Positions 10,323 through 53,543 of a stretch of 64,000 nt of DNA are shown here, one piece after another. The position numbers and the translations under genes are program-made. The number at the start of each line of letters is the position of its first letter. The first letter of the stretch is position 1. The stretch comes from Psammoneis japonica (lineage: Eukaryota). The notes under the pieces were generated by a model, which was not told the origin of the DNA, searched no databases, and worked only from the letters and a program-made list of their open reading frames with translations. Location of the stretch: contig QPGO01000224.1 in NCBI GenBank assembly GCA_008632985.1, forward strand, positions 1 through 64,000, in the 5' to 3' direction.

Positions 10323-10483
10323 GTGTTCAACAGACAGAGGGCACTGACAATTTTCTAAAAAACTTGCAAAACATCAAATGAACACATCACATTTGTGAGT
10401 GACGTTGACGTGTTCAACAGACAGAGGGTGCTGACCATTTTCTAAAAAACTTGCAAAACATCAAATGAACATGACACATTTGT
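10323..10483. repeat. Tandem duplication, 87-bp period
   Basis: gtgttcaacagacagaggg..ttttctaaaaaacttgcaaaacatcaaatgaaca..cacatttgt at 10323 and 10410. Copies differ by CA vs TG (gggCAct / gggTGct). Confidence 0.9.
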
Positions 10484-23340: not shown

Positions 23341-23578
23341 AATTCTTTTCAGATGATGTGATGCATCACCGGCAATCTAATCTGCCGGCACTTAGCACAC
23401 AAAGGATGCCTGGCGACCGACGGACAGAACGGGTGATGAAAGTCTATCGCTCCCGTTGCCACATTTTTTGATCACATTGAGCTTGGGGAGCAAGGAGCAT
23501 CATCAGCAACAACACGAATACAGAGTCAAATCATTCACTCGGCAGTGTCTCCTGCCAGTTGTGGTTTTAAAAAGCGAA

Positions 23579-30590: not shown

Positions 30591-30745
30591 CTTCAGGGGG
30601 CACTGACCACTGCAAAGAGCAGGGTGGGCAGACCATGCAGGCCCTGCTTTTGATGCGGCTGAAAACAGAAGAGCAACAAGTCATCAAATGACAGAGAGTC
30701 ATTTGACACATCACAAGGGCAGTTTTGCAAGCTCCTGACCCCATC

Positions 30746-31130
30746 ACGGTTCCAGTCCTAGGTGGGACTTTTTGTGACATTTGCCCCGTAGAATTCTACG
30801 TGCGAGCTCTGTAGTTCGTACTCTGGTTAATGGATATATTTATCTTCGACATAAAAAACGGCCAAGCTTGTAGTACATCTATCCCTGTTCGTACTCGAAG
30901 TTTTGGATAATGCGCCTGCCCTACGCCGTTCTTAAGACACTCGAGAATGGCGTAGAAGAAAAAAATATTAAAAGTTGTTCAATGGATAGCCTGATAATTG
31001 TGCTATAAAATCATACAAAATTTCGCCAAAATCACGTAGAAATGTACGTCCGTGACATACGACGCGATTCAAAAAACCATCGATGTCACAGTTCAGTAGT
31101 GCGAGGTCCCACCTAGACCTGGAACGCGTC
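30746..31130 (+). mobile_element. MITE family A, copy 1 (TpA intact)
   Basis: TIRs gttccagtcctaggtgggac / gtcccacctagacctggaac; colinear with 35497-35884. Left end altered and no TSD found. Confidence 0.9.
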
Positions 31131-34100
31131 GGAAACTGCCCCATTGCATTTGGTGTGCTCGCATGTTGCACAATTTGTGCGGGTCACTTCCTTGTTCAAT
31201 GCTCGTCATTCATCAATTTTTGTGCTTTGTGCATGCTCAATGGTCAAATCATCCCCTCATTTTCCCCCCTTTTCTGTGATGACCATGAAAAGATTGCCAA
31301 AAAGAGCAGATGATGGACAAATCCTTGTTGTTGTTGAGGCAGACTGCAGCTGTTGCAGGAATTGAACAGAAAGGCACCTTGCAACCCCTCTTCAAAATGC
31401 TGAGTCATCGACCAGTCTACGTTGTTTTCATTTGTGGGTGCAGCTCCATTTTCAGCTGACTCTCCAATTTTCGTTTGTGTCTCTGAGCAACATCAGCTCA
31501 ACTCCTGTGTTGTTGCACTCACCGTCTCCATGTTCAGGACTGTCCAAGTCCATTGGGAGAGATGATGCTGCAATTGACCTTCTGCCTGCATCAAAAAAGC
31601 AATCTGAAATCTTTGTCGGACACGTGCAAGAAGCACAGAGTCAACAAGCAGGACACTTGAGAAGGCCAAGAGCAAGCAGACACGTGCAGAGGCAACATTG
31701 ACAAACATGGACAAAAAAGACAAAAGAAATGTGCACAAAAGGAAAAGGATGTTAACCTCGTGTCCAACTCAGATCATTCTTCTCCAATGACATTTTCTTT
31801 GGGGAATGACATTTTCTTTGGAGAACTTGAATCTGACAGCTCCGGCCAGCTGTGGGGTGGAGAAATGCTTTTTCCACAAAAAGGGTGACAATCCCCGGTT
31901 TGGTCATTTGGTCATGCAGCAACAGCTAAACTTCTTTTGTTGCAAGCAGAGAAAAAGCTTGGGATCTTGCAGGAATGGTTGAAAAGGAGCACTTGTTGTC
32001 CACTCTGTTTGGTCCAGTTCAGTCTGTGCATCCAAGCCAGAACAATGCACCCGAGATGAACAAAGTTCAAATGAGAGAGTCCCAACAGGAAATGATCAAG
32101 GAAGGCTGCTGTGCCAAAGGAATGGCTGCCGTGTGCAGAGCAAAAATGGCTCCTCAACTGTCGCTGCTCCTCAGCTGCACTCCCAACAAATGCAGACATG
32201 CAAAGGGGCATTTGCGCAAAATTGTCACTGCGTCAAGCGACAGCGAATCCTTTCTTCATAATTTTGGGCATGAGATGAACAAAACCATGGAACACACCCA
32301 GGACACAAGTTGCCTTGTGTGGGACTTTCAAGTGTTGGTTGACAGCATGGGAAAACTTTGGCACATTGATGCCAACTGGTGATGTGTTTTCATCCCAGGT
32401 GAGAAACTTATGGACACATCACAAGGTTTTCTGCGTGTTTCTACATGAGACGTACATTTAGCACCAAAAATCTTAGTAAAAAACGAGCTCCATGACAGCA
32501 AAAACATGTTTTTCCATGTCTCGAACCACAAACCACAATTCGCGCAAACCGAAAATGGCACCATGCCGTCGCCATGAACTCGTCCATTCTTGCACCAACG
32601 GATGTTGTGACTGAGAAGGTGAGAATGCCGAGACAGGTCAATGAGACAATGCTCAATGCGATGATGTGGTTGAAAATTTGATCTTTGTTTTTTGTTGTGC
32701 CTTGTGGATGGCCTTTTGACTCATGATGTTTTTGATGCCTCTTTCTCTCTTCCTCAGCTTGCGAAGTGGGATTCTCATCAACGCGCTGCTCCATCTGCTT
32801 GACACCGGATGCTGACAATGAAGAATGTTTCTATGACACGTTGCTGTGATTCTCACAATGCATCGTCCGCACTTTGAGTCGTTGTGGACAACGCTTTTGG
32901 GTCGCGCGACAACATCAGATTTCGCTGCCGACAAGAGAATCGTCATGTGTTCGGTTTTGAGGGTGTGTGAGGATAAAGAATCTCAGATGCAAGTGTGACA
33001 GTTTCATCATTGTAAAGTGGAACAATGCCATTAGCGACATCTCAGTGTTGCAGCCATTTTATTTTATTCCAAGATAGAACTGGTCATTTTGAGTGGTGAA
33101 ATTTTGTCAATGTTTCATCTTTAACTCCACTTGGGCATGTCAAATCACATGATGACTGGACACACATTGAACTTTGACGCCACCATTTCAATCCTGTTGT
33201 TTTATTCACTCAAGCATCCCACACAGGTTGACAAATCAGTCGATCTTTGAAATGGCCGATCGCGCAAAAAAATCACGTGCGAAGTCAGTTCCCCCGATTT
33301 TTCTTGTGCAAATGACAGAGTTAGAACGCCGTTCTTTTTTGGCATGAGCTCTTTGTACAATGAACAATGCGTACATTCTTTCAAAGCAGTCAGATTCGGT
33401 GAAAGAAACAGTGGAACAGTCTCTCAAATGCACCAGAACAACAACAACGAGCAGACAGCTGTCAGTTTCACTCCAAAAAATGCCGCTTTCGAGACAGCGC
33501 TTTTCTTGCACGCACCCTTCAACCAATGAGAATAACGGCTGGCTTTTCAAAATAAACATGTCTGTGGAAAGAAGAAACGAAAAATTGGGGGAAAGTCCAG
33601 TCAGATTTGCTCGCACAAAAAGCACGGCGACGGAAAAGGGACAGACGAAACGTCTCACCTCCGCATGCGCGTTTCTCACCTGGGATGAAAACACATCTGG
33701 TGTTTTGAATGGAGTCCCAATGACAAAAGAAATTTTGTCAGAATCAACAAGCGGTGACACCAAGAAGAGCGTTGTGATCAGGCAAAGAAAACATTTCTCA
33801 GTTGTGTCAAAATGGCTGAGCAGATTGTGGCAAACAATGCTGCAACAAAGACTTGGCGCAGCATTCTTCCTGGTCACGTGCAGCTGTTGGAAGAGTCCCT
33901 TGTTGCACATGCAATTTTCTCCCAGAAGTGACATGGAGGCCACCACTGCACCAGAAATGTCATTGAGGCAGCCACTGCATGTGCCCAAACCACAAAGCAG
34001 CTGGTCAAAACGAGCAGATGTTGTCATCTGTCACACACAGTTTGAAGCCCCCTGGCTTTCTTCACAGCCCGTTAACCTCCACAGTGCAAGTTCTGTTTTA

Positions 34101-35496
34101 AACGACTGGCAATGGTCTGGCTGGTTAGAGCACCAAAGGTGTGGCCACTGCACCATGTGCTTTGCACACAGCTCACACCTCCGATGATCAGCTTCACTCT
34201 CCCAAATCAGTTTGCTCAATCTTCACAGTGTCTTTCCAAAATTCTAGATCAATGACGAGCAACTTCTTTGTTCCATTGTCTTCATCTGCAACAATGCAGT
34301 TGCAACCATGAGAACAATCAAGAGGTTGGAAGTTGTGGTCACTCCACAGCTTGTCAATCACAGTGCCAAAGTGCCCATCAAACTCTTCCTCTTCGGGACA
34401 CCTCCCCTTCTGCAGACCAAGGAACCTGACCATGCCAGATGGTGACTGCGCAATGAATTTTGGAGTGGGGACAAGCTCACCCCATGCCTTTCTCAGCTGC
34501 ACGCATGCCTTGACCTCATTCTCATGACTTTCAAAATTCTTCGATGGATCAAACTGCTTTGCCGCAACCTTCTCTTCACCACAGCCACTCTCAAAGACGT
34601 CTCCGTTCCTTCTGACCCCCAACAACCTGCCAATCCTCAAAGTTCAAAAATCAACTGGACATGCAAATTGGTCTTCAAAAGAAAACAAATCAAAGAAGGA
34701 GCAGTCTGGCGGGGTGAGTGGGAGTGACGTGATGTTCCCTTCCTCATCCTCAGCAGACCTCGACTGAACCAACTGAGGCAGTGATGACACCAAAGTCAAC
34801 TGGCTGCCTTCATTCTTCATGCGGCACTCAGGAGATTTGTGTCTTGGTTTCTTGGACACAGGGCTAGATCCACTGCTCTTGTCACTTCGGCTTCCTCCAG
34901 ATGGTTCATGGTCACTGCTTCCATCACCACCAGAAGAGTCATCATCGTTGGGATGATGTCCAGTTTGCTCTTGATCTTCAACCACTGACTCCGACATGTC
35001 AGCTTCACAAATCGGGGTCTCCAGAAGCCAACTGATGCCAGTGCAGGGAGATGTTTCAAGGTTGTGATTTCCATTGGTCGGTGCTGGACTTTTGTTGGTG
35101 AGACGAATCACACACGCCCAAGCATGAAGAAAGTCTTTCTGACCAGCAATGCACGCGTCAGCAATTTCCACCCCGTGAACTTCTCTGCCTGGTCCATCAA
35201 GGTGGATGAAGTGCACTTTTGAAGCACAAAAAAGAGCTCCGCATCAAACAACATTGTCGACCATGTGTGCAAATTCCTGGGCAAGCGGGTGGCAGATTTG
35301 AGACACCAGTTCTTGGATGCTCTTTTTCCCTTTTTGTTGCTTGCTTCTTGACTGCCTCCTCACAACACTGCTTCAACACGTCAGATTTGTTTGGAAGCAA
35401 CACATTGTGCAACGTCTTTGCTTCAAAAACTGCTGTTGTCTGAGCTTGGTCAGGGCCATTTCCTGTCAGTTTCATGTGACAGGCTTTGTCAGGCCT

Positions 35497-35884
35497 GACG
35501 GGTTCCAGCCCCAGGTGGGACTTTTTGTGACATTTGCCCCGTAGAATTCTACGTGCGAGCTCTGCAGTTCGCTCTCTGGTCAATGGACACATTTGTCTTC
35601 GACATAAAACAAACAGCCAAGTTTGCAGCACACACATCTCTGTTCGTACTCAAAGTTTTGGACAATGCGCCTGTCCCACGCCATTCTTAAGACACTCGAG
35701 AATGGCGTAGAAGAAAAAAACATTAAAAGTTGTTGAATGGATCGCCTGATGATTGCACTATAAAATGATGCAAAATTTGCCAAAATCACGTAGAAATGTA
35801 CGTGCGCGACATGCGATGCGATTCAAAAAACCATCGATGTCACAGTTCAGCAGTGCGAGGTCCCACCTAGACCTGGAACGCATT
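35497..35884 (+). mobile_element. MITE family A, copy 2; 4-bp TSD GCCT
   Basis: gcct|gacgggttccag...ctggaacgcatt|gcct. Confidence 0.92.
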
Positions 35885-36386
35885 GCCTTCCCATTGTTGG
35901 ACAGCGGTCCCATTCTTCAGAATCCACTTGGAAGGGCAGACACATGAGACCAGCTTCACAAAACGGCTCAAACACAAACGCATTGAGGAAGCTTTGCTCC
36001 ATGGTTTCGTTCATTGGCAACATCTTGCTGATGACGGTTGTTGCATGCAATGGCACAGTCATTGGCAGTGGAAGCCCGGTCATGTCGAACTTCTCTTTGA
36101 AAAGATTCGTGAAATCTTCCCACTTTTCAATGGTCGGCAGATGGCATTGCTTGCTTCGTTGTTCGTTGAACTTGCTTTGTTGACTTGTTGTTGTGCCATC
36201 AGCATTGCACATTGGTGGCAAAATGGTTGATGATGCCATCCCTTCTTGATCATGACATTGGAACGCACGCGCATCATGCTGCACAAAAACTTCGTGGCAC
36301 TTTCCAACAAATTCTCTACGGGCTCGGTTGAAGTCTTTTCTTGCCCTCATCTCCTCCGGTGTCAGAGAGCATTCTTTTTGTTTGAC

Positions 36387-36662
36387 TGATGGAAATTGAA
36401 GGCAAATGGCAAGAATTCAAACAACAACTCCTTGCTGCTGTCTAAATGGCAGATGAGTCTCCGCTCAGAGACCGTTGCAGGAGCCAAAAGACTTGCAAGT
36501 TGGCATGGTCCGGCTGCTGTCATTGTTCTTGTGAGCCTTGTGGCTCGAAAGCAAACTGCATCGCGCGCGAACACGCGGAACTAAAGCACACAAAACTGTG
36601 CGCGGCAAACTAAACAGCGCGCAACATTTCGCGCGCACTTGAATCCTGTTCAAATCCTGTCA
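36387..36662 (-). repeat. 3' LTR (276 bp)
   Basis: Aligns without gaps to 43218-43493. Confidence 0.97.
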
Positions 36663-39600
36663 CTCCCCAGTTTGCTTGAGGAGTCACAGAAACAGATTCG
36701 ACTTTGGATGAAATGAAGTTCCAGAACATGAGGGGGCGGAGAAGGTCCCAGATTTGGGAGTGACCACAATGCTTGCTGAGGATGTCAGCAGGGTTGCGGG
36801 AGCCTTCGATGAAGTGGAGCTCAAGGCAACCAGAGGCAATTGCCTCACGCACACGGTGGAATGACAGTGCGGTGTGTCGCTTGTGTAACTTGGAGTGCGG
36901 GATGGTGGCACCATCTACAACCGACTTGTTGTCACCGAACATGCAACTGACATTGCGGATCGGGACGCCAAGGTGGCGCAGGGTGATGCGCAGGTCAACA
37001 ATCTGCTCGACACAAGTCCTTGCGGCAACAAATTCAGACCCGCAGGTCGCAGTCTCCACGGTGGCTTGCTTCTTAGAGAACCAATCAGCCGGGAATTTGT
37101 TGAGGAAGTGGAGCATTCCCATGACAGAGCGTCCGGTGAGCATGCAATGGTGCAGGTTTGCATCGACATAGTGGGTGGCAGTGACGAACTTGCCAAGGGG
37201 CGGTGGAGCGTCCTTCGGGATCATCTCTTCTGCTTCGCCGCACACGGAATGCATCCATTCACAGGCCGGAGCAGGGAGATCCGAACAGTCGGGCTCTTCC
37301 GTGCGAACGCAGAGAGCACCGTGTCGCATCTTGGAGAGGTGCCCACAGACGCGTTTGGCACGATCCAAGTGGCCTTGATGGGGCACAGCTCGGAAGCTAG
37401 AGAGTGACATGACGGCTGTGGCAATGTCAATTCGACCAAGGGACACTGCCCATTGGAGTGAACCAACAAGAGACTGGAACTTGTGAATGCCATCGGGTCC
37501 CAGCAGTTCGGAAGTGTCCAGTTCGGGGTGGTCACCCTTCTCCAGAGGTGACAGGGAGTTGGTGGCAGGTTTCTCCCCAAACAGTCGGGCACAGCTGTCG
37601 ACCATGCGCTCGATGTACTTGCACGGAGACAGGCACAAGGTTCCGTCGGGATCCCGGGAAAAGTCGCAACCCAGATGGAACTCAATGGGTCCCGTGCCCT
37701 TGAGCTTGAACTTGCACTTTTCCGTGAGAGCATCGACAAAAGATTGAGGGTCCTTCATGGCAATGGCGAGGTCATCCACATAAACGGCAATGCATTCACA
37801 GTGGTCGCTGTTCCTGCGCATCCAAATGTCGGGTTCGGCGCGGCAGGGGAAGAAGCCTTCAGCTCGCAGGCAGTCGGCAAAGCGCTCGTGCCAGCGGAGA
37901 CCAGAGCTGCGCAGTCCATGCAGGGCCTTGTGGATGACAAGGATGTGTCCTTCGAGTTTGCCAAATTCGGGTCCGGCCACAATGTAAAGCTTGTCCTTGG
38001 TGGTGGCTTCAAGGCAGGCATTGCCAATGTCGGTGGCCCATGTCTCCAACTCGTTGAGTTCGGCCAGGAAAATCATCAGCCGAAGGCCACGGAGGGAGAC
38101 TGCTCCGGAGTGGACACTGTCGACAGGTACGTCTGTGAGGTGCCCGTCGGCTACGAGTCGTGCCTTGTGGCGACCGTCGTGTTTCACGTCGCACACTGGG
38201 TGCACTCGGATCTTCTTGTGTCCCGCAGGAGGAGTGGAAGACTCGAAGGGCCCGCAGTCATGGAAGACTTCGCATTCGTCGAGTTGGTCCATCTCGAGAT
38301 TAGTTGCATCTCCCCATTTGCGGTTGCCGTTGCGTTCGTCTGGTGACATGGCGTGTTTGCAGTTCCGGGGAACTTCGCACCTGCACTTGCAGCGAGGTGC
38401 AGTGCGGAAGGAGCGAAGCTTGGCTTGGTTGGCCATGCGAAACAGCTTCTTTTGGCGCCTCGCGATGGTGCGGAACCGCTTCCAGCCATCCGTGTCGAGG
38501 AGTCCGTTCTCTCGTGCATGGATGGCGCAGGTGACGGGGTCGTCCTTGGCGATGATGGCAAGAGGCTCGGACGTGATCTCCCCACTTTCCCATTCAAGCA
38601 TGATGTTGTAGCTTGAGCCTTTCCAGGTTGGGTCGTGAGGCTTCAGAGGTCCTTCGTGTGACACGATGCGTCGAAATTTCCAAGTGGCAGTGTCTTCGTC
38701 TTCTTGCTCAATGTGATTCATGATGTCATTGTGGGCAAGGACTTCCTCGCATTCGTCGTTGTTGACAGAGCAGACGAACTTAGTGAGCTTGGGGTTGCTG
38801 TTCACTTTCCATTCGTGGTCTTCGACGGCCTTGACGATGCGAGCTCTGTGGCGTTGTCCGTCCTCTTGTGGCTGCATGAGGAAGGTACGTCCAATGATGT
38901 CTTGCAGATCGAAAACTGGCATCTTGGGTGTCCTGATCTCCCCATCAGGAGAATCGACGGGGTTGTCGTCATGGCGAGATTTGATGATGGGTTCAGGTGG
39001 CTCCCCATCAGGAGGATCAAGACGCAGGTTTCGAACGGCAGGATCGGTGGTAGCGGAGCGGACGTTGGACCGGCAGAGGATCTTCTGAGTCTCGTCAGAG
39101 AGAATCTTGAAGGTCATCTGGTGGCCGACGTGCTCAGCAATGCCAACGAAGCGTCCACACAACTCACGGGATTCGGACGGCCAATCGGAGTCATCGAGGT
39201 GGAAGCACACGGGTTCCCACCAGTGAAAGCGAAGCAATGGGCTGATGTCCGGGGTGGAGCCAGTGAGAGTCTCGAGGGGCGTGCGCCAGTGGAGACGTGG
39301 GGACGCTGTGTGGTTGAGTGTGAAGCACACATGCATGAGCGCCAGCAGCCATGTGTGGGCGGGCGAACCAAAACGATCCATGACAGTGTTCGCCATGCGC
39401 TTCACGGTCTGGTGTCGACGCTCGGCAAAATTTTGGTGTTGCTGGTGAGGCTCACTTTGCCAGCTGGAGATGAAGAGGGCCCACAGGATCCCAAGCACTT
39501 TGTTGCTGATCTCAACTTGAGCACGGTCGCCAATGAGTTTGGATGGGGCACCACGCTCACGGATCTGATCCTCGAGTGTGTTGACAAACTCTTTGTCCGT

Positions 39601-42278
39601 CTTGGTGCCGCAGACGTCAGTGACGGTAGACTCGGTGCCAACAAACAGTTGGGCACTGGTGCAACCAGAGTCGACGGCCGGGGTGTCGGCATGAACGGTG
39701 TCAGTGGCGACAGGCTCGTTGCGGCGGTGCACATTAAGGGCGGGGTTGGGTGATTTGCAGGCCTTCCTAAGGTGTGCACCGGTGGGCATGCGGGCGCACT
39801 GCGTGGTGCAGTCAAAAGTGCGACGGACCGCATCAGTGGGCAGGAAGCCAAAGCAAGGCCGAAGAGACTTGAAGGGCGGGTCCTTGGGCTGTGCAGTGCG
39901 CTCCGGGGGCGGGACATCATCGTCCTTGGGGTCAATCGCATGTAGATGACACTCGTAGAACATGTCGTCGTTCGGAATGAGGTGATCATCGAGGGCGGAC
40001 GCGTGATCGGCAGACAAGGAAGTGGACATGATGGTCTCGTTGACAACGACACGATGACGGCAGTTGCCGCATTCGTCAAACAGGTTGGCAGTGGGATCGT
40101 CCTGCAGGTCAGAGATCGCGTCACACCACTGGTCGTCATCAGTGACAGAGTGATCGAGGACGGAAGGATCCCATGTGTCATCACCGGTGAGGATGACATG
40201 GGGCAGGGTGTCCCATTCGGCGTCAGTGTAAGGTCGCATGGCAACACAAGGCAGGCCGGCCTTGATGTCAATGGGGATGACACAGCCATCAGGAGCGGCA
40301 ATGCATTGCAAGCCGTTGGGCACCTTGACAGAGTGATCGTTGACATCCTGTTTGCACCATTCGAGCTGGCCGCAGGAATGGATGGTCTTGCCCTTGCCCG
40401 TGTGTGCGCACTGATGGAGGATGGCGATGACGGGACCACGCTGGGTCTCAATGACGGCACCAGCGGTGACAATGGGGATGTCCACCAATTGATGGTCGTC
40501 AATGCCCTGAACGTCGACTTGGCGAGAGGTGCGTGCAATGATGCGAACGTCGTCGCCAGCAATGCCGCCGTTGGCCCCACGATTGACTGGAGCGCCAGTG
40601 CGTGTGGAGCGATGAGCAGAGGCAGAGTGAATGACATTGTGGTTGTTGACGCGGTGGCAAGTGCGGCCGTTAAGTTCCATGTCATCGGCAGAAGCTGGCG
40701 GGGTAGAGGGAGCGGCGGATGGCCCCGGTCGACTGGCATTGGGGGCTTGGTTAGGAGACAACAGACGGTGCAGATCACCGGGTGGCAGGGGCTTGCGCTT
40801 GGTGAGGTGCGCCAGGATGGGATTGTCCGAAGTGGCACCCACATTTGGAGCGGAGTCACCAGAGTCAGAAGGAGTCGTGTTGGACAAGTTGACATCACCG
40901 TCACTCCCAAGGCGTTGGTCGTGAAGGTTGGCCGTAATGGACTCATGGCAGTTGCTGTGTCGCGGGTTACGGGGAGGCGGACGAGAATGCTCAAGGATGA
41001 TCGCCTTGGAGGAATGGGGCAACGAATCCCAAATCCGTTGGTGGTCGGGAGGGAGACGTTTCCATTGGTCACCGGTGAGGCTGGGACAACGGGTGCAGGC
41101 AGCATTGGCCTGAAGGACGTCAATGTCACTGTCAATGTCGTAGAACACATCGTCGGACGGTTCCTCGGAGCAGACGTCGTGTGCGTGTGTGGCGCGGCGG
41201 GGAGCTCGAGGTGTCGTCTTGGGTTGAAACGCACTGTCGCATTGGGCTGCCGCGGAGAGGAGCAAGCCACAGCATTGATCACATGTGAGGCTCTTGCCAC
41301 TCTGCGTGCGATGCTGATCAGCTTGGTTCTTGACAGCACGGAGTTCCTTGACAGGGTGCACGGCATTCTCGAGCATGACGCGCTTCTGTCCTTCAGAGAA
41401 GTGGTCACTGGCCGGGATGAGTGCCTCGCACTTGCGCAACTGATCTTGCCAATGAAGGATGAACCCGTGGGTCAGACCTTTCCAAGCACCATCACCCAGA
41501 CGTGTGGTGGTGAGGTGCGTTGGCAGGGTGGAGGACTCGACAGATGCACGGGTGGAGGCGAGCGCGCATTCAGACAAGGCGCGGCAGACGGTCTGTGCAT
41601 CAGAAGACTCCACATTTTCGCGGATGAGAGCCTTGCCCTTGTCGGTGAGAAGGATGTGTTCGAAGACGGCGAACATGTGCTTTTGCTGTTCAGCAAAGAG
41701 CAGTTTGTCTTCGGGGCTGGTCGGTTTGTACGACGAGTCTAGAATGCACTCGACGTCTTGGGCACGGGCTTGTGCCACAAGTGAGGTGTGCCAAGTGTGC
41801 CACTGCTTGTCGGATTTGAGAGCCGTGAAAGCAGTGGGATCCCGCTTGATGCCTCGCTTGAAGTCCCGCACCGGGTCGCGTGCCTTGGTCGGGTTGGTGA
41901 CATGCGGAGGTGCGAGGGGTGAGCTGCCGATGGACACAGAAGACATGTGGTCGGGGCTGAGGCGGTGGGCAAGGAACTCGTCATGCGTGAACAACGAGGA
42001 GTCATTGGCAACGTCAAGACCTTTGTGTGCTTTGACAATGCACAGACTGGCTAGAGCTGCTAACATGTTCTCACAACCACGGGCAAAGGGATCACATTAG
42101 TGCCGTTGTCGCACTCAAGCCAGTCGATTTGGGACGGTGTGAACGTGAACAGTTCTTGATGCGAGTCCGTGCCGTCTTGTGCCAAAGCCAAATGGAGAGG
42201 GCTCCCAGCACCTTGGGCAAGCACGGTTCCAACAACATGCTCGAAACCATCAGTTTGTTGCTGACGAGTGAGAACCAT
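36610..42278 (-). pseudogene. Copia gag-pol polyprotein, open for 1818 aa but missense-inactivated; frameshift near 42080
   Basis: RGANGG protease with the catalytic D read as N; integrase SEPHQQHQNFAER; RT HKARLV and YVDD; RNase H DNKSV and NPADILSK. Only 9 Tyr counted in 1818 aa. Confidence 0.95.
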
Positions 42279-43203
42279 GGCAGACAAAAGTGGTGTCAGG
42301 ACAAGCAATTCTTGTTGGGAAGCGAAGGCAGACTTGAAGCTTGGGTGAGAATGGACTTGACTTGAAATGGACTTGACTTGAAATCTTGATCTATCTTAAA
42401 ATCAGAAGTCGCCGGGCTTTGCTGTCCCGTTCGTTGTTGAGTGCTAAACTTCCCATCCGGTCCGCAGAGTTGTGCCGGCACGTCCGAACCCGCAGCTGGC
42501 GGCGCTTTGGGTTGCTCACGAGCGGAGTAGCGGGTTGTAAACCCCTGCAGGCAAGCTGACTAGAGGTGGACAAGACCCCCGAACCGTTCTCATTTTATGT
42601 TGGTTGGATTTCCCGATCAGGCTGGCCAGTTGACGCAGGCGTCAGGCGCTGTGGACGAACGAACAAACGCGGGAAAGCACCCTCGCCCCAACGCAGGCTG
42701 TGATCACGGCTGCTTGCTCTCACAGTTGTCCTCGTGGACCCAGTGGAACTGTAGAGCACCAGCAGTCCGGGGTAGATCAGGTGCAATGGACTCGGTGTGC
42801 TTGTAGAGTGGTGGCAAAACCGCAGTCCGAAGAGTGGGTACAGGTTCTTGGCCGTGAAGACATGCATGTGTGCACATGTCTTCAGCGACGAAGATCCTTG
42901 AATGTGCAGGGTTCTTGACCGTTAACCGATGAACAGGCATGTCAAGGGATGAGGATCAAGGATAGACTTGGATGTGACCGTTGATTGCATGTCTTCAGCG
43001 ATCAAAGGCAGCATAATCACTCCAGATATCCAGCGGTAAGGAGACTTGACGGTGACGTTAACTTCCTGCCGATGCCCTGGCATTGAATGCGCGTAGACTT
43101 GCCGATGTATGTAGAACATATACGGAGGTCCACGTAGAATTGAAATAGCGTCGTTGGTAAATCAACGACGACGATGGCGGTTGCTCAATGGGTTGACAAT
43201 GAG

Positions 43204-43217
43204 CAAGACTGTTAATC
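43204..43217 (-). promoter_or_regulatory. Putative primer-binding site complementary to the anticodon arm of tRNA-Asn(GUU)
   Basis: Sense strand GATTAACAGTCTTG abuts the 5' LTR. Its complement GA-CTGTTAA-TC is an Asn anticodon stem-loop. No TGG-type PBS is present. Confidence 0.6.
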
Positions 43218-43493
43218 TGACAGAAATTGAAGGCAAATGGCAAGAATTCAAACAACAACTCCTTGCTGCTGTCTAAACAGCAGATGAGTCTCCGCTCAGA
43301 GACCGTTGCAGGAGCCGAAAGACGTGCAAGTCGGCATGATCGGGCTGCTGTTGTCATTCTTGTGAGCCTTGTGGCTCGAAAGCAAACTACATCGTGCGCG
43401 AACGCACGGAACTAAAGCACACAAAACTGTGCGTGGCAAACTAAACAGCGTGCGACATTTTGCGCGCACCCAAATCCTGTTCAAATCCTGTCA
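43218..43493 (-). repeat. 5' LTR (276 bp)
   Basis: Aligns to 36387-36662. Confidence 0.97.
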
Positions 43494-43610
43494 TTGACGT
43501 TGAACCGGGTCACAAAAGCACTCCCCTGTGAAAGAACCAGCTCCTCAACTTTGTTCGCCATCTGCTCTGCAACATTTTCAGAGGCAATTTCAACGTTGTT
43601 TGCCATCATT

Positions 43611-45902
43611 GCAGGAAACGAGAATCCGACGTGTTCCAGCTCTGGGTGGGACCTCGTGCTGCTGAACTGTGACATGATCATTTTTTGTCATCCGTCGCAT
43701 GTTTTGCACGTGCATTTCTACGTGTTCCATTGTAAAATGTTGTTCCACACTGCCTGTTTTGCGAAGCCAAAGGCTTTCTGTTGTCTGCATTTGTGACAAT
43801 AAAAATGCGCTGGGCATGTTCTTCAATGTCTGAAGAACACACCCGGGTGTGTTGTAAAGAATGTGCTTCAAGTGTGGAGGAGGAGATGCGTTCGCAAAAT
43901 TGCCTCTTTTTCTGTTGGCAATCATTCACACATGCATTGCTTGACAATTTTACTGCGGAGCTCGCACGCAGAATTCTGCAGGCCCAATGTCACAAAAAGT
44001 CCCACCTGGGACTGGAACCCGTCATCCACGGAATCGCATGGAATGTGCGCTTTTTCTCCTCATTCTGTTTGTTTGTTCCGTAAAAAATGAGGCCTTTTTC
44101 GCACTCTGTTTTGGACTTTTCTAAGGAACATGCCCTCATGTTCCAGATGGAAGTGTCAGCAATCGGAGCACGATGGTCACATTCCGCTCCGATCACCAAG
44201 ACAAGTGCACTCCGTTTTTGTGCAGAACATGATCTTGAAACTGGAACGACCGCTTCATTCCGTGCACAGACTGAGGTCAACGGATTTTGTTTTCAACAAT
44301 GTGCCATTTGTTGGCACAGAGCATGTGTTGAGATGAAAAATTGCAATGAACATTGTCCACATTGGCCAATGTCACTGCTCTGTTGTTTGATGCTCTCTGT
44401 TCATCCCTCTGTGATGATTCAAGCGACCAGTGTCAAGAATGACGGTGAGATGTTTGATGCTGTAATGCTGCAAGACCGTGCATTGTCGTCATGGCATGTG
44501 TGTTGTTGTCGTCTTCGATCGTGGAAAGTGTCATGTGGGACACTCATGTCTTCATTTTTATTTTAGCTCGTTGTGCAGCAAAGAAGACAGTGCAACAATG
44601 ATGGCCAAAATGTTCAATTGACATTGGAGTGAGAATCCCAAAAGGATTGCACATTTTGCAATTGTTTTGACATTGCAACATGTTGTGAACAAATTGAGGA
44701 CTTTTAAAATTGACAATTCAAATCACACATGTGAAGCAATTGTGTCGAAAACAAAGAAGAAAACATTTGATGACCACGTGCTGATTTGTTTAAAAAAGTG
44801 CGTGGAAAGACGTCGTTGAATTCTACGTGACTTTGATTGCTCTGTAGAAGGTGCGACGATTTACACTGGAGGAGAGGATTCGCATCACAGCCACATCTTC
44901 TCGCACTTGCTTCTCGTTCGCTCTCATAAAAAACGCAACACAGCCAGTGGCAGAACGCATCTGAAGCAACAACGGCAAACAATGGGAAGAACAACAGGAG
45001 AGTGAGTGGTGTGATTTGTGACAATTACAGCACACACGATGGCAAGCCATCATGTGATTGTGCAGCACTTCAAAGGTCGCTTGTGCTCACATTTTCTTCT
45101 CTCTTTTTGCTGTTGGGGTTTGTTTCCAGAGTCCAGAGGGTTCTGGTTCCGAGTGTGGCTGCTCCACTGCTGAGAGAGTGGCACCGCATCATCAACCGCT
45201 CTAGTTTTTGGCAAAAGAGACGTCTGGACAGCTGCACCCATCAACGGCCCGCATGTGCAAGCTTCATTTTGCTTTTTCTGTCACATTGAACGCATTGCTC
45301 ACTTTCAACTTTGTCACATGTTGCTCATGTTTGGGAAAGGTTGAAGTCCCCTTGTCATCTGTTGGGCACCCAAGATGATCAAAAGAAGGAATGCATCATT
45401 CTGAGATTCGGCTGAGTGGTGCAGCAAAGCGATCGGTCATGCAAATGCAGGCAGAGCACCAGTGTGGGCGGAGCAGGAGTTCTCACTGTGCAGTGGAAAT
45501 GCAGCAGCACAACAATCCCATTTTAGAATTTCAGTTGATTCCGCAACGTGTTCCGCACCACAAGCTCTGGAGATGACATGCCACATTCCAACCACAACAC
45601 GGAAAGTGAAGCTGTTGCATTCCGTGTCATTGGTCGAGCGAGAGGAATCCACAAACGGAGTGCAGCAAAAGGAACAGCAAATGGAATTTAAAACAAATGG
45701 CCTCTTTCTAACAAACAAAATGGTGAAACGCAACATGCAAATTGCGTCTTGGGTGCGGAATGAGCACACACGTTGGAATGTGACACGGATTTTGATGAGG
45801 CTTTTTTTGTTTTGCACCGTGTCACTCACACTCCATTTTGAGGCTTTTCGTGACGGAGTCGCACACACATTCCGTGCGATTCCGTGGATTCTCATTTCCT
45901 GC
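43611..45902. mobile_element. Non-autonomous TIR element (family C) with about 40-bp TIRs; left TIR interrupted by MITE A copy 3
   Basis: gcaggaaacgagaatcc[MITE]acggaatcgcatggaatgtg matches the reverse complement of 45861-45902 (gcaggaaatgagaatccacggaatcgcacggaatgtg). atcattg occurs at both sides, offset by about 8 bp on the right. Confidence 0.75.
43628..44023 (-). mobile_element. MITE family A, copy 3 (inverted, diverged interior); TSD ATCC
   Basis: atcc|gacgtgttccag...gtcccacctgggactggaacccgtc|atcc. Confidence 0.9.
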
Positions 45903-48370
45903 GCACCTTGATCATTGAAACAATGTTCAGCAGTGTGTGTGATGCGATGCTGCTGCTCTCTCTCTCTCTCTCTCTCTCTAGCTGCTCCACCTGCCATTCC
46001 TGGCTGGCCAGCAGAGAGCTCTGCCTCTGCCGGTTGCAGCTCTCTGGCTGGCAAGCAAGCAGTGGCTCTAGAAACTGGAGAGTGGAGGGCATCAGAGCGG
46101 TTTTCGATCGCACCAGTGGCGCCAGGCCATTGGACTTTGTGCCTTTTGCATTTCTCGGTTGATTTCTGGGTTGCTTGTCGATGCAGCACCCGGGTGTCCT
46201 GCATGCATCGGCATGCATGAAGTGCAGAGTGGGTCACACGAGTGACTCTCCACGTCCAATTTTCAACAAAATTCACTGCTGAACATTGCAGCTGCACTTT
46301 TAGAATGCTCACACTGTTGGTTTAGAAGGGCTTTGCACCCTTGAACTTGTTGCACATGCTCACCACTGACTGGTGTGGTGAGCCAGCCACTTGCTTCTGT
46401 CTCAAATCTCCGGACAAGATTTCCCACACACAGTGGCACTCATGATCAAGCTCAGCACCCAGACTGCAAAGGTGAGAACAACTGAATTTTCTGACAAAAG
46501 TGTCAACAATGTGAAGGTCATGTTTGTTTGCTGCACACATGGCATCTTTTGGGCATTTGATGCTTTTTAAGTGTGGCGCAGTTTTTGCCTCACTGTTTCT
46601 CCTGTGTCTCGCTGTTGCTCACAGGCCCACTCAGCACCCATTGCAGCACAGATGCCAAGGTGATTGCGGACCAGATGGTTGTTAAAAAATGTGTCTCAAG
46701 CCAAGGATGTGGAACAATCTGTTGAGATCAATGGCAGCAACCCTTGGTTGTGCCTTCCAAAATGGGGAGCGGCTTGTTTTCTTGTCAAGCTGGTGGAAGT
46801 GCAATGAGGTGCTGATTGTTCTTTTGGCCAGTGCAATTGTTTGTCACTGTTTGAACATAAAAAGTTTGTCACTGTTTGAACACAAAACTCACAACAGCAA
46901 TCTCAAATGGGTGCTTTGGAGTTTGTCAAAGTTGAAAGTGGTGCAAGTCGTTTGTCTGCTTTTCCCACAAGGAGCAAGAACGGTCTGCTGCACTCAGGAC
47001 ACCTGTGAGTGCTGCTTGCCATGCCACTGCAGATGCAGTTGGCATTGGCACAGTTGCTGGGGTTGCACACTGCAGCGCTCATGGTTGAGATGCCACATTG
47101 AGACAAGCAAAGCTTTCAGCATTTTTTTTGTTCCTGCTGTTGCACCCGACCTCACCAAGGGGACAGATGATTTAGATCACGCAAAAGTGGTGTGCAGGGC
47201 AGATTTTTTTGCTCTGGAAATCCTGCTGTGCCTTCCACCTGAGTGGAACAAACAGAGGATGTGTGGCAGAATTTTTGAAGAGGTGCCGCCCCTGTGTTGA
47301 CATTTCCACATGCAAGAATTCCACTTTCCAGCAGAAAAATGCCACTTGGGTGGAATTCTGGGTGCAATGGTGCAGTGCGGCAAGGAAGTGGTCAGCCCAA
47401 GACAAAGGAAGAAGATGAGGAAAAATCATTGCACACCAAGAATTGCGCAGAATCCTGCACAGAATGTGATGTCAGCTGCAGAGCTGTGCGTGCTTTTGGC
47501 ATGCAGCCATCAGCAACAAGCCTGCCAAAGCACCATCACACAGAACACAACTGACTGTCATGACAGCCATTGTCAACAATGGACAATGCGGGAAGCCAGA
47601 GAAAGCTCAAGGAGCTCCTTGTTGACAAGTGTGTCTGTGGAATGTCTCTTCTCCCAACTTGAGCCAGTTGTGAACTTGATTGGAGAGAACATGCTGGAAG
47701 AGAACATGGGAGCATGTTGTCTCTTTGTCCTCAAGAATGTGGTGCCCAATGGCATGTGACTCACTTGTTGAATGCAGTGTGTGTTGAAGTGTGACAGCAG
47801 CCACAGGTTCTGGACAAGTCATCAACCGCTGGCAGCAGATGAAAGAATCATGTCAGTTGCCACTTGCACAGCAAATCACAACAACCAATGTTTCCTCATC
47901 TGGTTTCCTTGTCTTTCCTCATCTGAGGAAAGTCAGGGTCAAATGAGGAATTCCCTGCAATCAAAAACCCTCTCTGGCTGGAGCAGAGCCAGAGCAGAGA
48001 AAGATGCTTCACAGCCTGCAGCAAGTGGTGCCACAAAAAAAAATCAAAGGCTGACATCATGACATTTTCTTGCTGGATGGCTTGAAATCTGCTCAATCTG
48101 CTTCTGCTCACCTGAAAACTGCTTGTTTGTCAGAAAATGAGCTCCCAGTGCAAGAAAATCTTGGTTGTCCTGCTGTGCGCCATCGCACGACTGAGACCCC
48201 ATGCAGAGCAGGTTGTTTGTGCTTTTCTTCATTCTTTGGAGTGATGTGCAGACCATGCTGAGATTGCCTGCAGAAAGCCAGTGGAATCGAGTAAAAAATC
48301 TGCTTCATTTTTCTCATAAAATGGCCAAAATCTACTTTGCTCACCACCCAACATGATGTCACTTTTCTTG

Positions 48371-49542
48371 CTTGGTCGGTTTGGTTTCACCCATTTGGGA
48401 TTCCCCAAAATGGCCAGTGCAAGGGGGAGTCACTTTACCCTTTTGGGGAAAACCCGGGAAATGAGGGCAATTTGGCAGGAAGGAATGCCTGAAAGAGCTC
48501 AGGGGAGGGGAACAAAAATGAGTGGAATGCAGCAATGTGCAGCAATTGTGGTTGGGCGTGTGTGCTTTTGTCCCCATGCAATCCATTGCTTGTGGGCAAT
48601 GACCATGACTGATTCATCAATGCATTGACACAAAGCGGCCCCTTGTGGCAGAGCAGGGCAAGAACAAACTTTGCCATTGAAACCCACACGTTGGCATTGC
48701 TTGTGTGTGCGGCCCCACACCTGCCTTGGCGCTTGCTCCAGAGCCCTTGCAGCTTGCACTTGTGACCACACGACACAAGAAGGGAAAAAATGATCCACTG
48801 CATTCTGCACATGAGATGGGCCAAAGGGAAGAACAAACATTGTCAATTAATCTGACACATTTTTGTCAGCGGTGTGAGGTTCTGCTTTTGTTTGCCTCAT
48901 GCCATGCCACAGACACCTCATGGCTTGCATTTGTGACTGCATGACAAAAGAGTGATTCAATGATCTGCTTCATTCTGCACATGAGATGTGTCAATTGGAA
49001 GAATGAGGGCAACTGTTCAATCTGCCACATTGTCCTTGTTGGCTGTGTGTGGTCCCCCCTTTGCCTTGGCCTTCACTGCATGCCTTGTGGCTTGCATCAG
49101 TGATCGCACGACAAAGAACAGCTGATGACTGATGATCAATTTTGCCAGCATGCTGTGCATGAGCAATCACATTTCATCTTGTGTTTCATGTTGTAGATCC
49201 CATTCAATCAACATCATCAAATGCATTGAATGGTGTCATGATTGAGCGACAACAGTTGTCACAAAAGGGGCCAAAAAACCATCATGGTGTGTTGCTTGGT
49301 TGTTGATTTCCTGTCTCACTTGCTGCACGTCCCAGCACACACAGAAGGTGCAGAAATGTGTGAGAGGGGAAGCATGGGGAACTCCCAATGTGTGAATCTT
49401 TGTTCATGCATTTTGAACACACACACACAACATGGCATTTTGCATGGTGATTCCCCGGGATTTCACGCTTCCCGTGGAAATTGTGGCAAAAGGTGGCAAT
49501 CCCGGGGAATTTTGGGGATTTCCACAGCAAAGCCAAACCAAG
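48371..49542 (+). mobile_element. Dispersed repeat family B, copy 2, with short TIRs and a possible 8-bp TSD
   Basis: Ends cttggt...accaag, flanked by ttttcttg / ttttcttc; colinear with 29123-30590. Confidence 0.75.
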
Positions 49543-50021
49543 TTTTCTTCCCCACAGTGCACACCCCTGTGCAAGGGCTGCCATGGGATGCAGGTGGGTG
49601 TGGTGTGTGATGACATCACCACATGCATTGAGCTGCATGTGCCCACATTTGCACTGACAATTGCATGTCACCAAGCAACAACTCCCATCCCATGGCACCC
49701 CCAAATCTCTGACCACCAAACACTGAGGGCAGCACTCAACCATTTTTCACTCATTCTCAAGCCACCCAAACAACGCTTGTCACATTGACTCCACCATGAC
49801 GACGTCTCCTCCTTTGTCACCAACAAATTGCAGGACTCCATTCTCGCTGAAGTTGTTGATGTTGACACACCAATGCAAGAGGTGAGACTGTTGCTCTGGC
49901 TGTTGTGCACCTCGCACATCCCAAATGAGAGTGCACAAACTCACACTGTCATTTTCATGCTCCACCACCTCCTCACCTCCCACAGGTGATGCCCCCCATG
50001 ACAACATTGCATCCTGAGTCA

Positions 50022-50566
50022 TTTTTTTTTCTGCCAAACATCCATTTTTTTTTTTGCTGGTGGCCCCGCCACTGTCTCGTGAACTCATGTGTGGCACAAT
50101 TGACACATGCGAGTGTAACTGGCTCATTGTTGACTTGTGCAGTCGAAAAGCGATGGGCAAAAAATTGAACATTTCAGCTGTTTTCGCTGTGATCAATCAA
50201 CATCAAAGCACAGCAAGGCACACACATGTGAAATGAATTGCGTGACATCAACACATGTCAGTGTCATGGTCAGTTCATGGCTGTTGATGGAGCACATTGC
50301 ATTTGCGGTCACCATTGTTGTCACATTTCAACAAGTCATGTAAAATTTGAAACACAAAACATCCGTGCACATGCGTGTGTTGTTGCACACAGGATCATGC
50401 GTGCAATGTGTTTTCATGTGCGCAGAGCATCCAAATTTTTCACTTGCAATGATTTCATGCATGGACAAGGTGTCAACATTGATTGCCTGACACAAAATTG
50501 TGTCGATGTTCCAACACAAACATTTGGCTTGCCACCAGCAAAAAAATGGACGTTTGGCAAAAAAAA
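50022..50566. repeat. Inverted repeat pair (about 40 bp), likely a decayed MITE
   Basis: tgccaaacatcca(t)n-gctggtggc versus gccaccagc-(a)n-tggacgtttggca. Confidence 0.6.
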
Positions 50567-51491
50567 TCAGGTGGGCATCGCGCATCTGGGTTTCATCTTG
50601 CCACTGGCATGACCAACACTGTCACTCCTGCCCTTGATGCAACAGGTGTTGTTCAACGTGCTTTTGTCCTTTGCCCAATTGGTCAAATGGTGCCAACTCA
50701 CACTTCTTTTCTCATGCCTCATGCTTCAGCTCCTCTCACAAGTGCCAGAGCCCCAGCAAAGCCATTTGCCTCCCACTGGAGACACCGCTGCCACCCAATC
50801 CCCTTCTGAGTCCACCCCATCGGACCATGATGTCACTCCAGTTGTCGGCAGCAACTCACACTTTTTTTGATTTTTGCACCCAAGTGCCAACCATCTGAGT
50901 TGAGGACGGTGAATGCGCACTGTGGCTGAAGCAATGTTCTTGCAATTGCCTTGCTGCTCTGGGGGGGGGAGCAAATTTCATGGTCAATCATCAGCGTCTC
51001 CCAGCATTGCAGATGGTTTTCAACACACAAAGTGTTTTCATGGGATGTCAAAGGGAACGACATCCAACTGCCTTCATCCTTCTTCTTGCAGCCGATCTCA
51101 ATGTGTGCATTGTCAATGTTGGCTTTTCTGAAGTTGTGGGTTTGTCTGGGGTGTGCCAGGAAGAGATGAATGGCTGAAAAGCAACACAAAGCCTTGAAAC
51201 TGCTTCAAGTTTGGTTGGCCAGTGACTGCTGTTGCAAACAAGACCTGCCAAAGACAAACAGTGATGCTGCGAATGTGTTGCATGCCATGCAGTTCATTGG
51301 CATTGTCAAGACACTGTCTCGCTCTTGTTGCAGTGTGAAGGTTTTGCACACCACAGCTTTCTTGACTTGCTGGGGTGAGTGCTGCTTCTGGAAAAGAAGC
51401 CCTCAGCAATCAGTCTTTGCAGCATGCAACACTTCTGATGCAAACTAAAACAATGAACCACAATTTAGAGCAGACTGAGCTGTTCATGTCT

Positions 51492-51893
51492 GACGCATTC
51501 CAGCCCCAGGTGGGACTCCGTGTGACATTGGGCCCGCAGAATTCTGCGTGTGAGCTCTGCAGTGCGAGAATTTAATTGATGGACACACTTGTCTTCAACA
51601 TCAAACAAGCTGCCAAGTTTGTGGCACAATTGTGCCTCTTGTCACTTGACGTTTTTGGAAAAGCGCCTGCCCTGCACGATTTTTAAGACAATGGATCACG
51701 CTGCACTGCAACAAAAAATGTCAAAAGTTGTTGGACGGATCTCTCAACAAGTGTGCAGCACCGTAAAATGACACAAAATGTCAAAAAAATCATGTGGAAA
51801 TCTATGTGCGCGACATGCGACGCGATTCAAAAAACCATCGATGTCACAGCTCAGCAGTGCGAGGTCCCACCTGCTGCAGACCTGGAGCGCGTC
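51492..51893 (+). mobile_element. MITE family A, copy 4; TSD GTCT
   Basis: gtct|gacgcattccagccccaggtgggac...gacctggagcgcgtc|gtct. Confidence 0.9.
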
Positions 51894-53543
51894 GTCTTTT
51901 CATCGTGAAATTTCCAGATGATTGAGTGTTTGATCACCTCCTTCACTCATCTTTTTCTTCCTCCTCCTTCTCATCTTCATCCTCCTTGTTGTTGTCTGCT
52001 TTGAACTTTGTCCAGTCTGCTGAATCACATGTCTTGCTGCAGTTGATTGAACTCCAAATTGCGTCCCCACCACATCCAGCAACACCTTCATTCAAAGACA
52101 TTTGACATTGCCTTTGGCAGCAGGCACAGCAGGAACAGTGTTGGGTGTGCCAGGAAAGGCGGCAACTGGCTTGGGGGGGGGGGGGGGGGCAAGCCACCAT
52201 GCCAGGCAGCTGCACCCAAGACTGTCATTTGATGCCATCGCAGGCGCCAGCTGCTGGAGCTGCACCTGACAGTGTCATTTGATTCCATCTCATCTGTCCT
52301 GGCAATCTGTGGCAATGTGTTGGCATTTGTGACAGTGTCTGTGGCAGGCGCTGCTGCCTGCTGTGTGAGAAAAAACGTCGACAGTTTGCAGCACATCATT
52401 TTGGCTGTGTTTGGCACAAGAGAGGCAAAGCAACAGCATCAACTCTTGCATCCATTGCATTGGGAACAGCGTTGGGTGTGGCACTTGTGGGACATGGAGC
52501 CACGGCATTTTCATTCACAACAAAAGCTGTGGCAGGCACTGGAGCGTGAGAAACAGAGAGTCTGCAAACAAGCTCTAATTTCGGACGCAGCAGGCACACG
52601 ATGGCCGCAGAAATGACATCACCTGACACACCAGAGTCATTGTGGACCGTGTGAAACAGGCGCCGCATCACAGTGAGGTGTTGATGACAAATCGCTTGAC
52701 ATCATTGTGACGAACTTCTGTTGACCAGTGCTTTTTGTGTGTTGCACGAGAGAGGGAAAAATGATTGAGTGTGCCACGCTCAGCATTTGGTGGTCAGAGA
52801 ATTGGGGGAGAGCATGGAGATCAGGATTTTCCCTGATGCTGGGAGCATTTGTGCACAAATGCCAAATTTTGTCAAACAATGCTTTGGTCTTGGCGCCAAA
52901 ACCCAGGGCGCCACACCCAGGTTTTTTTGAATGAGGAAATTGTGCATTCGACCAAGAAATTATTTTTTTCATGCGGAACACAACAGCGGCCATTGACAAA
53001 TGACACAAGCGACCGTTGAATCCACAATGATGTCAACACAATTGATTGCAATCATTTCGGTCCTCATTTAAGAGCCTTTGCTCCGATGACACGAGATCAA
53101 AATCTCTTTGACATTCGAAAATGAAAGACCCGGGTGCCACACCCGTGCACCTGTGACAGCTGCATCTCATTTAGATAGAACAAAAGCTTGCAAACCCTGA
53201 CCAGGTTCGCTTGGCGAAACTGCGATCATTCACCACTGTCATAATATGAAAGCTTTAGAATCCGATGAATTTGATTTGCTATAGTGCTGAATACCTTACT
53301 ACAGTATGCCCGTGTCAACGGTTTGATCGACCCGCTCAGGGGCAGCAAAACGAGAAGCAAAAAAGATCCAGCAACAGAAAAGCTATGTGAGGCTCATGAG
53401 ATTGCTGATTCTGCATACGCAATACGCAAGAACAGAAACGAAACGAGCACCTAAAGTGGAGAACAACAGCACCCAAGTTGAGGTAGTGCAACAATTGAGG
53501 TTCAACGACAGCGACCGATTTTCTGTTTTACATCCGCAACATC

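Follow-up and report, generated by a model that had tools for sequence, protein, structure and literature searches.

Probable TpA-directed transitions, with parallel CpG decay, in a Ty1/copia retrotransposon and the repeat DNA of a diatom-like host

We found that the two LTRs of a Ty1/copia retrotransposon, located in the 64-kb stretch of DNA that was analysed here (the window), differ almost only at dinucleotides that are expected to result from two mutational processes. Our reading, which we consider likely, is that two dinucleotide-directed transition processes acted on chromosomal DNA after integration and that both are confined to repeat DNA. The fast process would change A:T to G:C at 5'-TA-3'. 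As TA is its own reverse complement, a change on the top strand would yield TG and a change on the bottom strand CA, neither of which would be changed further by this process. Where each LTR is struck independently, sites at which one LTR reads TG and its partner CA, hereafter reciprocal sites, would arise. About 80-85% of the TA sites in the copia copy would have been converted in this way. The slower process would turn CpG into TpG or CpA; it would have changed about 10% of the conserved CG of the ORF and, in the LTRs, about 29% for each copy, which is the result expected of 5-methylcytosine deamination in methylated transposons.

The retrotransposon lies on the minus strand at 36387-43493 and represents a single insertion with an intact target-site duplication. 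Its parts are the following:

36382-36386, no strand: left target-site duplication TTGAC; an identical TTGAC follows directly after 43493
36387-36662, minus strand: 3' LTR (element orientation), 276 bp, TG..CA, TA O/E about 0.1
36663-36680, minus strand: polypurine-tract side of the internal region; the reverse complement ends ..ACTGGGGAG adjoining the LTR, a putative polypurine tract
36610-42066, minus strand: gag-pol ORF P0001, open, 1818 aa; Tyr 0.5%, Cys 3.6%, His 5.3%
42067-43217, minus strand: leader, 5' untranslated side; TA O/E 0.48
43218-43493, minus strand: 5' LTR (element orientation), 276 bp, TG..CA; direct repeat of 36387-36662
43494-43498, no strand: right target-site duplication TTGAC, matching the left copy

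Residues 1280-1491 of P0001 correspond to the copia-type reverse transcriptase RVT_2 (Pfam PF07727, E 5.6e-23). This was the sole domain reported by Pfam, and the integrase models had no match in this mutated copy. Over its entire length, the protein can be aligned with hundreds of copia-type relatives of 1800-1900 aa from aquatic metagenomes, at about 60% identity. The 1818-aa ORF is probably non-functional, though it is free of stops. With a single gag-pol ORF containing RVT_2, short LTRs and a 5-bp target-site duplication, the element resembles the diatom CoDi-type Ty1/copia elements as they are described by Maumus et al. 2009 (PMC2806351). The GC content of the element is 0.58, compared to 0.47 in its surroundings. 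TA O/E in 500-bp windows is 0.05-0.19 over the ORF and 0.48 in the leader. The TA retention of the leader (O/E 0.48) was also placed at 42387-43217, where many of the surviving TA stand in GTAGA-type contexts. An inverted piece of about 100 bp of a 400-bp repeat is found at 43625-43724, 130 bp past the insertion, and the element therefore appears to lie in a nest of older repeats. The genes of the window are long and uninterrupted. Close to the element lies a fatty-acid desaturase gene whose best named matches are proteins of diatoms (Thalassiosira profunda 56%, Amphora 52%); the host, a eukaryote, is described here as no more than diatom-like.

Of the 276 LTR positions, 24 are unlike between the two copies and 22 of the differences are transitions, in agreement with an earlier note on this DNA, which had described the LTRs as differing almost only by transitions. 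The five reciprocal TG/CA sites that it listed are all there, at LTR positions 4-5, 61-62, 135-136, 138-139 and 254-255, where the left LTR reads TG, TG, CA, TG and TG and the right LTR the converse. Its single TG versus TA site is likewise present, at LTR position 172. Absent from that note are nine further sites at which TG or CA in one copy stands opposite CG in its partner. Swaps of Y-R dinucleotides hold 20 of the 24 differences, leaving only four outside, while 11 CG and three TA are common to both LTRs. Since the nine CG sites occur together with the reciprocal ones, two dinucleotide-directed processes are visible rather than one. Simulations with 24 random transitions on two copies produced 0.26 reciprocal sites on average and four at most; none of the 20000 runs reached five.

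A model of CG decay only, based on the LTR's own 11 unmutated and nine singly mutated CG, predicts 0.92 reciprocal sites, whereas five were seen (P=0.0026, a value that would soften under rate heterogeneity among CpGs). If the three classes are fitted together, the rejection of this model is only moderate (chi2 4.21, 1 df). The terminal repeats of metagenome copia contigs served as control pairs; most of them are 100%-identical assembly overlaps, and such controls are weak as contigs can be chimeric. With the same reservation, the reciprocal sites per mismatches were 0/20 in L001, 0/19 in L020, 1/61 in L051 and 2/58 in L043.

The coding region allowed the direction of change to be assessed. 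Compared with the mean of 120 homologs, P0001 contains 0.5% Tyr instead of 3.9%, 3.6% Cys instead of 1.0% and 5.3% His instead of 3.5%, whereas Arg is unchanged (6.4% vs 6.0%, n=120). In an alignment with 45 homologs of more than 1700 aa (the first 45 listed that passed this length), columns conserved to at least 80% were compared. Tyr was kept in five of 41 conserved Tyr columns, and the 36 lost residues became Cys (20), His (12) or Phe (4); all 32 Cys and His codons at these columns are TGY or CAY. By contrast, 54 of 59 conserved Arg were kept, and the five losses include one each to Cys, His and Trp. At the nucleotide level we used positions with TA in at least 60% of at least eight relatives. 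The 36 conserved TA positions are now CA (17), TG (12), TA (5) or AA (2) in the element, which means that 29 of 36 have become TG or CA. The 41 conserved CG positions read CG (35), CA (3), TG (1) or CT (2), so CG decay is seen at four of 41. The closest relative, L001 (69.5% identity, 3092 nt), gave the same picture: where it has TA, the element has TG at 42 sites, CA at 32 and TA at nine, and just one case runs in the opposite direction. These comparisons give the direction in the ORF as a change of TA into TG or CA. It affects both strands and has reached a saturation of about 80-85%.

Along the ORF, TG and CA are intermixed among the 32 outcomes derived from Tyr codons (19 runs vs 16 expected), and the strand-run test on these outcomes detected no clustering. 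The ORF is open despite the damage because TA to TG or CA makes no new stop, TAA giving only TGA or CAA; the TA process would thus leave the frame intact although the conserved Tyr codons (TAY) mostly became Cys (TGY) or His (CAY). For the same reason, long ORFs occur in other frames of the element. Such ORFs, left open where TAA and TAG were lost, lie in several frames and on either strand; examples are 39946-41742 (plus strand, 598 aa) and 39402-41471 (minus strand, 689 aa).

A dispersed repeat of about 400 bp provided a second family, of which the least mutated copy was used as the outgroup:

30748-31127, plus strand: copy A, least mutated, 30 TA; outgroup
35501-35881, plus strand: copy B, 12 TA
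51498-51894, plus strand: copy C, 4 TA

At nine sites copies B and C are reciprocal for TG and CA, and here copy A has TA seven times, CG once and TG once. Eight further sites have TA in copy A and the same derivative in both B and C. The ratio of eight shared to seven reciprocal TA sites is close to the 50:50 that would be expected of independent hits. Between copies A and B, TA in A corresponds to TG or CA in B at 15 sites and the reverse was seen at none. With copy A as the reference, most reciprocal sites in this genome appear to be TA-derived and a minority CG-derived. Copy A forms an island that keeps its 30 TA amid TA-poor surroundings, 4.75 kb from copy B. Either copy A was inserted much more recently, or the limits of the process are locally sharp.

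For the LTRs themselves the arguments are indirect. Because of the misfit of the CG-only model, the TA saturation of the ORF and the copy A outgroup, we expect TA to have been the ancestor of at least four of the five reciprocal sites; about one of them could be CG-derived. At the saturation found in the ORF, few TA should be left in the LTRs and about half of the doubly hit sites should be reciprocal, as was seen. The earlier note had favoured TA over CG as the ancestor, and this view gains support from the loss of Tyr in 36/41 columns with Arg kept in 54/59, from the change of TA at 29/36 positions against 4/41 for CG, and from TA in copy A at 7/9 sites. Its proposal that the TG/CA sites came from TA is thus supported, but it overlooked the parallel CpG decay, to which 9/24 differences belong.

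The dinucleotide profile was measured as O/E in 1-kb windows over this one 64-kb window. Genic kilobases have a CG O/E of 0.8-1.3 and a TA O/E of 0.4-0.9. The repeat blocks 1-1000, 4001-11000, 28001-36000, 44001-53000, 57001-58000 and 62001-63000 have a TA O/E of 0.0-0.15, TG/CA of 1.6-2.2 and a CG O/E of 0.02-0.6 (up to 0.79 within 44001-53000). Two of them are given in detail:

4001-11000, no strand: old repeat block with CG and TA nearly gone; CG O/E 0.02-0.25, TA 0.02-0.10, TG/CA 1.6-2.2; its ORFs gave no Pfam match
44001-53000, no strand: repeat block poor in TA and CG; TA O/E 0.02-0.14, CG 0.15-0.79

In the copia element TA O/E is 0.07-0.14 while CG O/E is still 0.77-0.95, and the TA process therefore appears to be the faster of the two. 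From a survival of about 0.13-0.19 for TA and about 0.74-0.9 for CG, we estimate a difference of about seven-fold per site. The sharp contrast between genes and repeats suggests that the process may be targeted to silenced repeats. Some TA-poor kilobases lie inside or adjoin apparently genic DNA, namely 1-1000 (TA 0.05, CG 0.55), 1001-2000 (TA 0.18, CG 0.95) and 23001-24000 (TA 0.21). The stretches 1-2000 and 23001-24000 may reflect a spill-over into host sequence, or they may contain unrecognised repeats. Six scanned repeat stretches (about 32 kb) contain 142 stop-to-stop ORFs of at least 90 aa, and a Pfam search of these 142 ORFs from the TA- and CG-poor blocks revealed no transposon domain. 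Sub-threshold Pfam matches to DAGK_cat (diacylglycerol-kinase, ORF 671-1018) and Spaetzle were taken as chance.

The copia family was also compared with other copies. In the 64-kb window, no further family copy turned up in blastn searches with the LTR and with the internal part, nor in tblastn searches with P0001 and five homologs. An exact 23-base word of the LTR gave no match in JGI metagenome contigs and none in prokaryote genome contigs, and no relatives of P0001 were found in viral contigs. Among the contigs of the source organism, 14427 pieces of at least 80% likeness were matched onto 36300-43600, and the word depth summed over this region exceeds that of single contigs by a factor of hundreds to thousands. 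In the source organism, the family or its near relatives are very abundant. The comparison gave 320 variable places; among the best-supported 40 of these 320, at which the element departs from nearly all family contigs, about 22 have CA or TG here and CG in the family, with contexts read by eye. The LTR is represented among the same 40 by just two places, 36573, with A here against G in the family, and 36639, with T here against C in the family; no reciprocal site is included. By this comparison, 36573 would be a private change from CG to CA. At 36912-36913 the element has CA and all of the 23 family contigs that cover the place read TG, a difference that takes two steps by either process. Two contigs connect 36381 exactly with 43494, skip 7112 bases and share five bases at the joint, as a precise empty site would. 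These contigs may represent the other haplotype, or a paralogue of the flanking repeat, as other joints carry a diverged flank.

With regard to timing, the earlier note had placed the change in chromosomal DNA and on both strands. This agrees with the interspersion of TG and CA in cis, with the differences between the sister LTRs and with the intact duplication. Since the LTRs were copied from the same templates, differences between them should have arisen later, unless the ends of the cDNA were edited unequally. The occurrence of TG and CA interspersed in cis would imply repeated hits on both strands over several replications. A single bout before integration does not fit, because one chromatid inherits the edits of one strand and would show all TG or all CA in cis. 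The damage to the ORF alone is not proof of mutation after insertion, since a copy with a broken ORF can be mobilised in trans. From the sister-LTR differences with an intact target-site duplication, together with the outgroup from the second family, we infer that the mutations probably took place in chromosomal DNA over generations.

Several other explanations have to be weighed against this. Editing before integration, either ADAR-like on RNA or by an adenine deaminase on the cDNA strands, could have produced unequal LTRs through uneven editing of the ends. We regard this as improbable, although ADAR prefers a U before the edited A (bioRxiv 10.64898/2026.01.13.699255), edited retroelement copies are known in animals (PMC4866542, PMC5224506), and editing of cDNA might in principle leave the LTRs unequal. 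Editing of a sense-strand RNA yields nothing but A>G on that strand; here, changes from Tyr to Cys (20) stand beside changes from Tyr to His (12), and TG (12) beside CA (17). Moreover, the interspersion of TG and CA in each LTR and in the ORF would need several rounds on DNA, the other repeat blocks of the window are in the same end state, and the Bigelowiella natans lines gain the same signature in chromosomal DNA (bioRxiv 10.64898/2026.01.13.699255). Ectopic gene conversion, in which one LTR was overwritten from another, differently mutated copy of the family, seems to us a shade more doubtful still. The great abundance of the family, with the 14427 contig pieces mentioned above, would provide donors, and conversion leaves the target-site duplication intact. 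However, the differences are spread over the whole LTR and not over one tract, and those outside the dinucleotides amount to just 4/276, as expected of sister LTRs. Conversion would in any case merely shift the same DNA-level TpA process to another copy.

That CpG decay was the only process, with methylated CG deaminated on opposite strands in the two LTRs, is in our view very unlikely. It would account for the nine LTR sites with CG against TG or CA next to 11 shared CG, for the many private CA or TG at family-CG sites of the internal region and for the one reciprocal site in nine that is CG-derived in the 400-bp family. Yet it predicts too few reciprocal sites in the LTRs, as described above, it explains neither the Tyr losses with Arg largely kept nor the preferential change of TA over CG in the ORF, and a change of CGA to TGA would have made stops. 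The opposite polarity, by which a RIP-like C>T change at CpA/TpG makes TA and the TA-poor copies are the original ones, we consider next to impossible. It could be read into the eight sites at which copy A has TA and copies B and C agree on CA or TG. The seven sites with TG against CA in B and C and TA in A, however, need a TA ancestor; the homologs of 45 other elements have Tyr where the copia copy has Cys or His; and TA-rich relatives are the rule, as 77 of 79 environmental loci are normal.

In fungi, RIP is a repeat-directed change from C:G to T:A, mostly at CpA, which enriches TpA, creates stops and inactivates transposons. The changes described here are similar in that dinucleotide-specific transitions of chromosomal DNA are directed at repeats. 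They differ from RIP in their polarity: A:T is changed to G:C, TpA is removed, GC is raised and no stops are made. A likeness to 5-methylcytosine decay is seen in the end products TpG and CpA, in CG against TG or CA at nine LTR sites and in the CpG O/E below 1 in the repeats. That decay leaves TA and Tyr codons alone, unlike the TA process. Diatom LTR retrotransposons have been reported to be CpG-methylated (PMC2806351). ADAR hyper-editing and APOBEC3 also leave clustered transitions of the deaminase type that are fixed in genomic retroelement copies. However, they act on RNA or on minus-strand cDNA, on one strand, with sister LTRs alike, whereas here both strands are affected and the LTRs differ. 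A further difference from such retroelement editing is that the other repeat blocks share the TA footprint.

In our literature search, TpA hypermutation was described only in a preprint on B. natans (bioRxiv 10.64898/2026.01.13.699255). There, Mettrop et al. report that TpA is hypermutated to TpG/CpA in integrated NCLDV and virophage DNA of mutation-accumulation lines (bioRxiv 10.64898/2026.01.13.699255). According to the same source, two integrated viral regions received 231 of the 302 new single-nucleotide mutations. Nearly all of the new mutations were A>G or T>C, and these were always located at TpA; their rate was about 6e-7 per site per generation, and only some of the lines showed them. 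Its authors proposed a DNA adenine deaminase of the ADAT2 type. Both systems share A>G/T>C at TpA and a pattern in which foreign or repeat DNA is struck and host genes are spared (bioRxiv 10.64898/2026.01.13.699255). As reported there, the long-term footprint in B. natans is likewise poor in TpA and rich in CpA and TpG, and reverse-transcriptase genes are enriched among TpA-poor CDS. As far as the preprint describes them, the systems also differ. The host is a chlorarachniophyte there and a diatom-like stramenopile here, with genic TA and gene structure unlike those of B. natans. The targets are integrated viral DNA there, compared with an LTR retrotransposon and all repeat blocks of the window here. 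TA O/E is 0.0-0.15 here, which is near saturation, vs 0.45 in the NCLDV region of B. natans. CpG decay accompanies the loss of TA in the same blocks here, unlike in B. natans, and the evidence is comparative here but experimental in B. natans. On the diatom side, the passages searched in Maumus et al. 2009 (PMC2806351), with which the study of diatom copia elements began, make no mention of a TA-directed mutation. In a 2025 diatom transposon preprint on the timing of TE insertions, a word search of the main text for dinucleotide, deaminat-, hypermut- and RIP gave no match.

As for the cause, the TA process could result from deamination of adenine to hypoxanthine at TpA, for which an ADAT2/3- or TadA-like enzyme acting on DNA would be a candidate. 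Alternatively, oxidised thymine at TpA might mispair with G.

A profile search of metagenome contigs yielded 79 related copia loci. None of them belongs to this family, and the best nucleotide identity is 69.5%. One locus of another family, L053 (2766 nt), has a TA O/E of 0.02, and Tyr makes up 0.2% of its longest ORF. Aligned with a normal relative at 35 positions where the latter has Tyr, L053 carries Tyr once, Cys eight times, His 12 times and other residues 14 times. A second locus, L063, shows a partial effect (TA 0.33; Tyr 14, Cys 4, His 5, other 8), while the other 77 loci pooled have Cys 32 times and His 107 times at 3865 Tyr positions. These sequences show that the footprint occurs naturally in one or more further copia families. 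Its occurrence in two of 79 unrelated environmental copia contigs suggests that the process operates in other hosts or families.

What is new here is TpA hypermutation, as we read it, on a retrotransposon in a diatom-like host; the process as such is known from the B. natans preprint. If confirmed, our reading would extend TpA hypermutation to a major phytoplankton group and to retrotransposons. Reciprocal TG/CA sites in sister LTRs may serve as a sequence-only test for action after integration. The earlier note had warned that LTR-divergence dating would overestimate the age of the element. The divergence is indeed 8.7% raw and about 1.45% without the dinucleotide-directed sites; the age would be overstated about six-fold here, and such dating would be biased in genomes of this kind. 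For annotation, dead elements would retain long ORFs, and TA-poor DNA gives many spurious ORFs in all frames, which may mislead gene callers. The mechanism could be approached through the bases of repeat DNA, where inosine or oxidised thymine would be expected, and through deaminase candidates in a transformable diatom. A bolder idea, which we put forward tentatively and would rate at somewhat less than an even chance, is that of a RIP-like defence of opposite polarity (A:T to G:C at TpA) that saturates nearly all repeats of a diatom genome, is several times faster than 5mC decay and is common to diatoms and chlorarachniophytes, being either old in SAR or recurrent. If true, such a defence would leave thousands of ORFs open but dead and inflate LTR ages about six-fold.

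With respect to the neighbouring bases of TA, the ORF comparison offered 34 polarised sites, too few for any trend. In the TA-poor blocks (about 37 kb), 228 TA have survived, and they are distributed non-randomly. Of these, 20 stand in CGTAGA or its complement, and the prevailing contexts are of the Y-TA-R type, for example CTAAA. TA preceded by A or G (ATA, GTA) survives least in these blocks. The contexts of the surviving TA suggest either a neighbour-base preference or a protection beside CpG.
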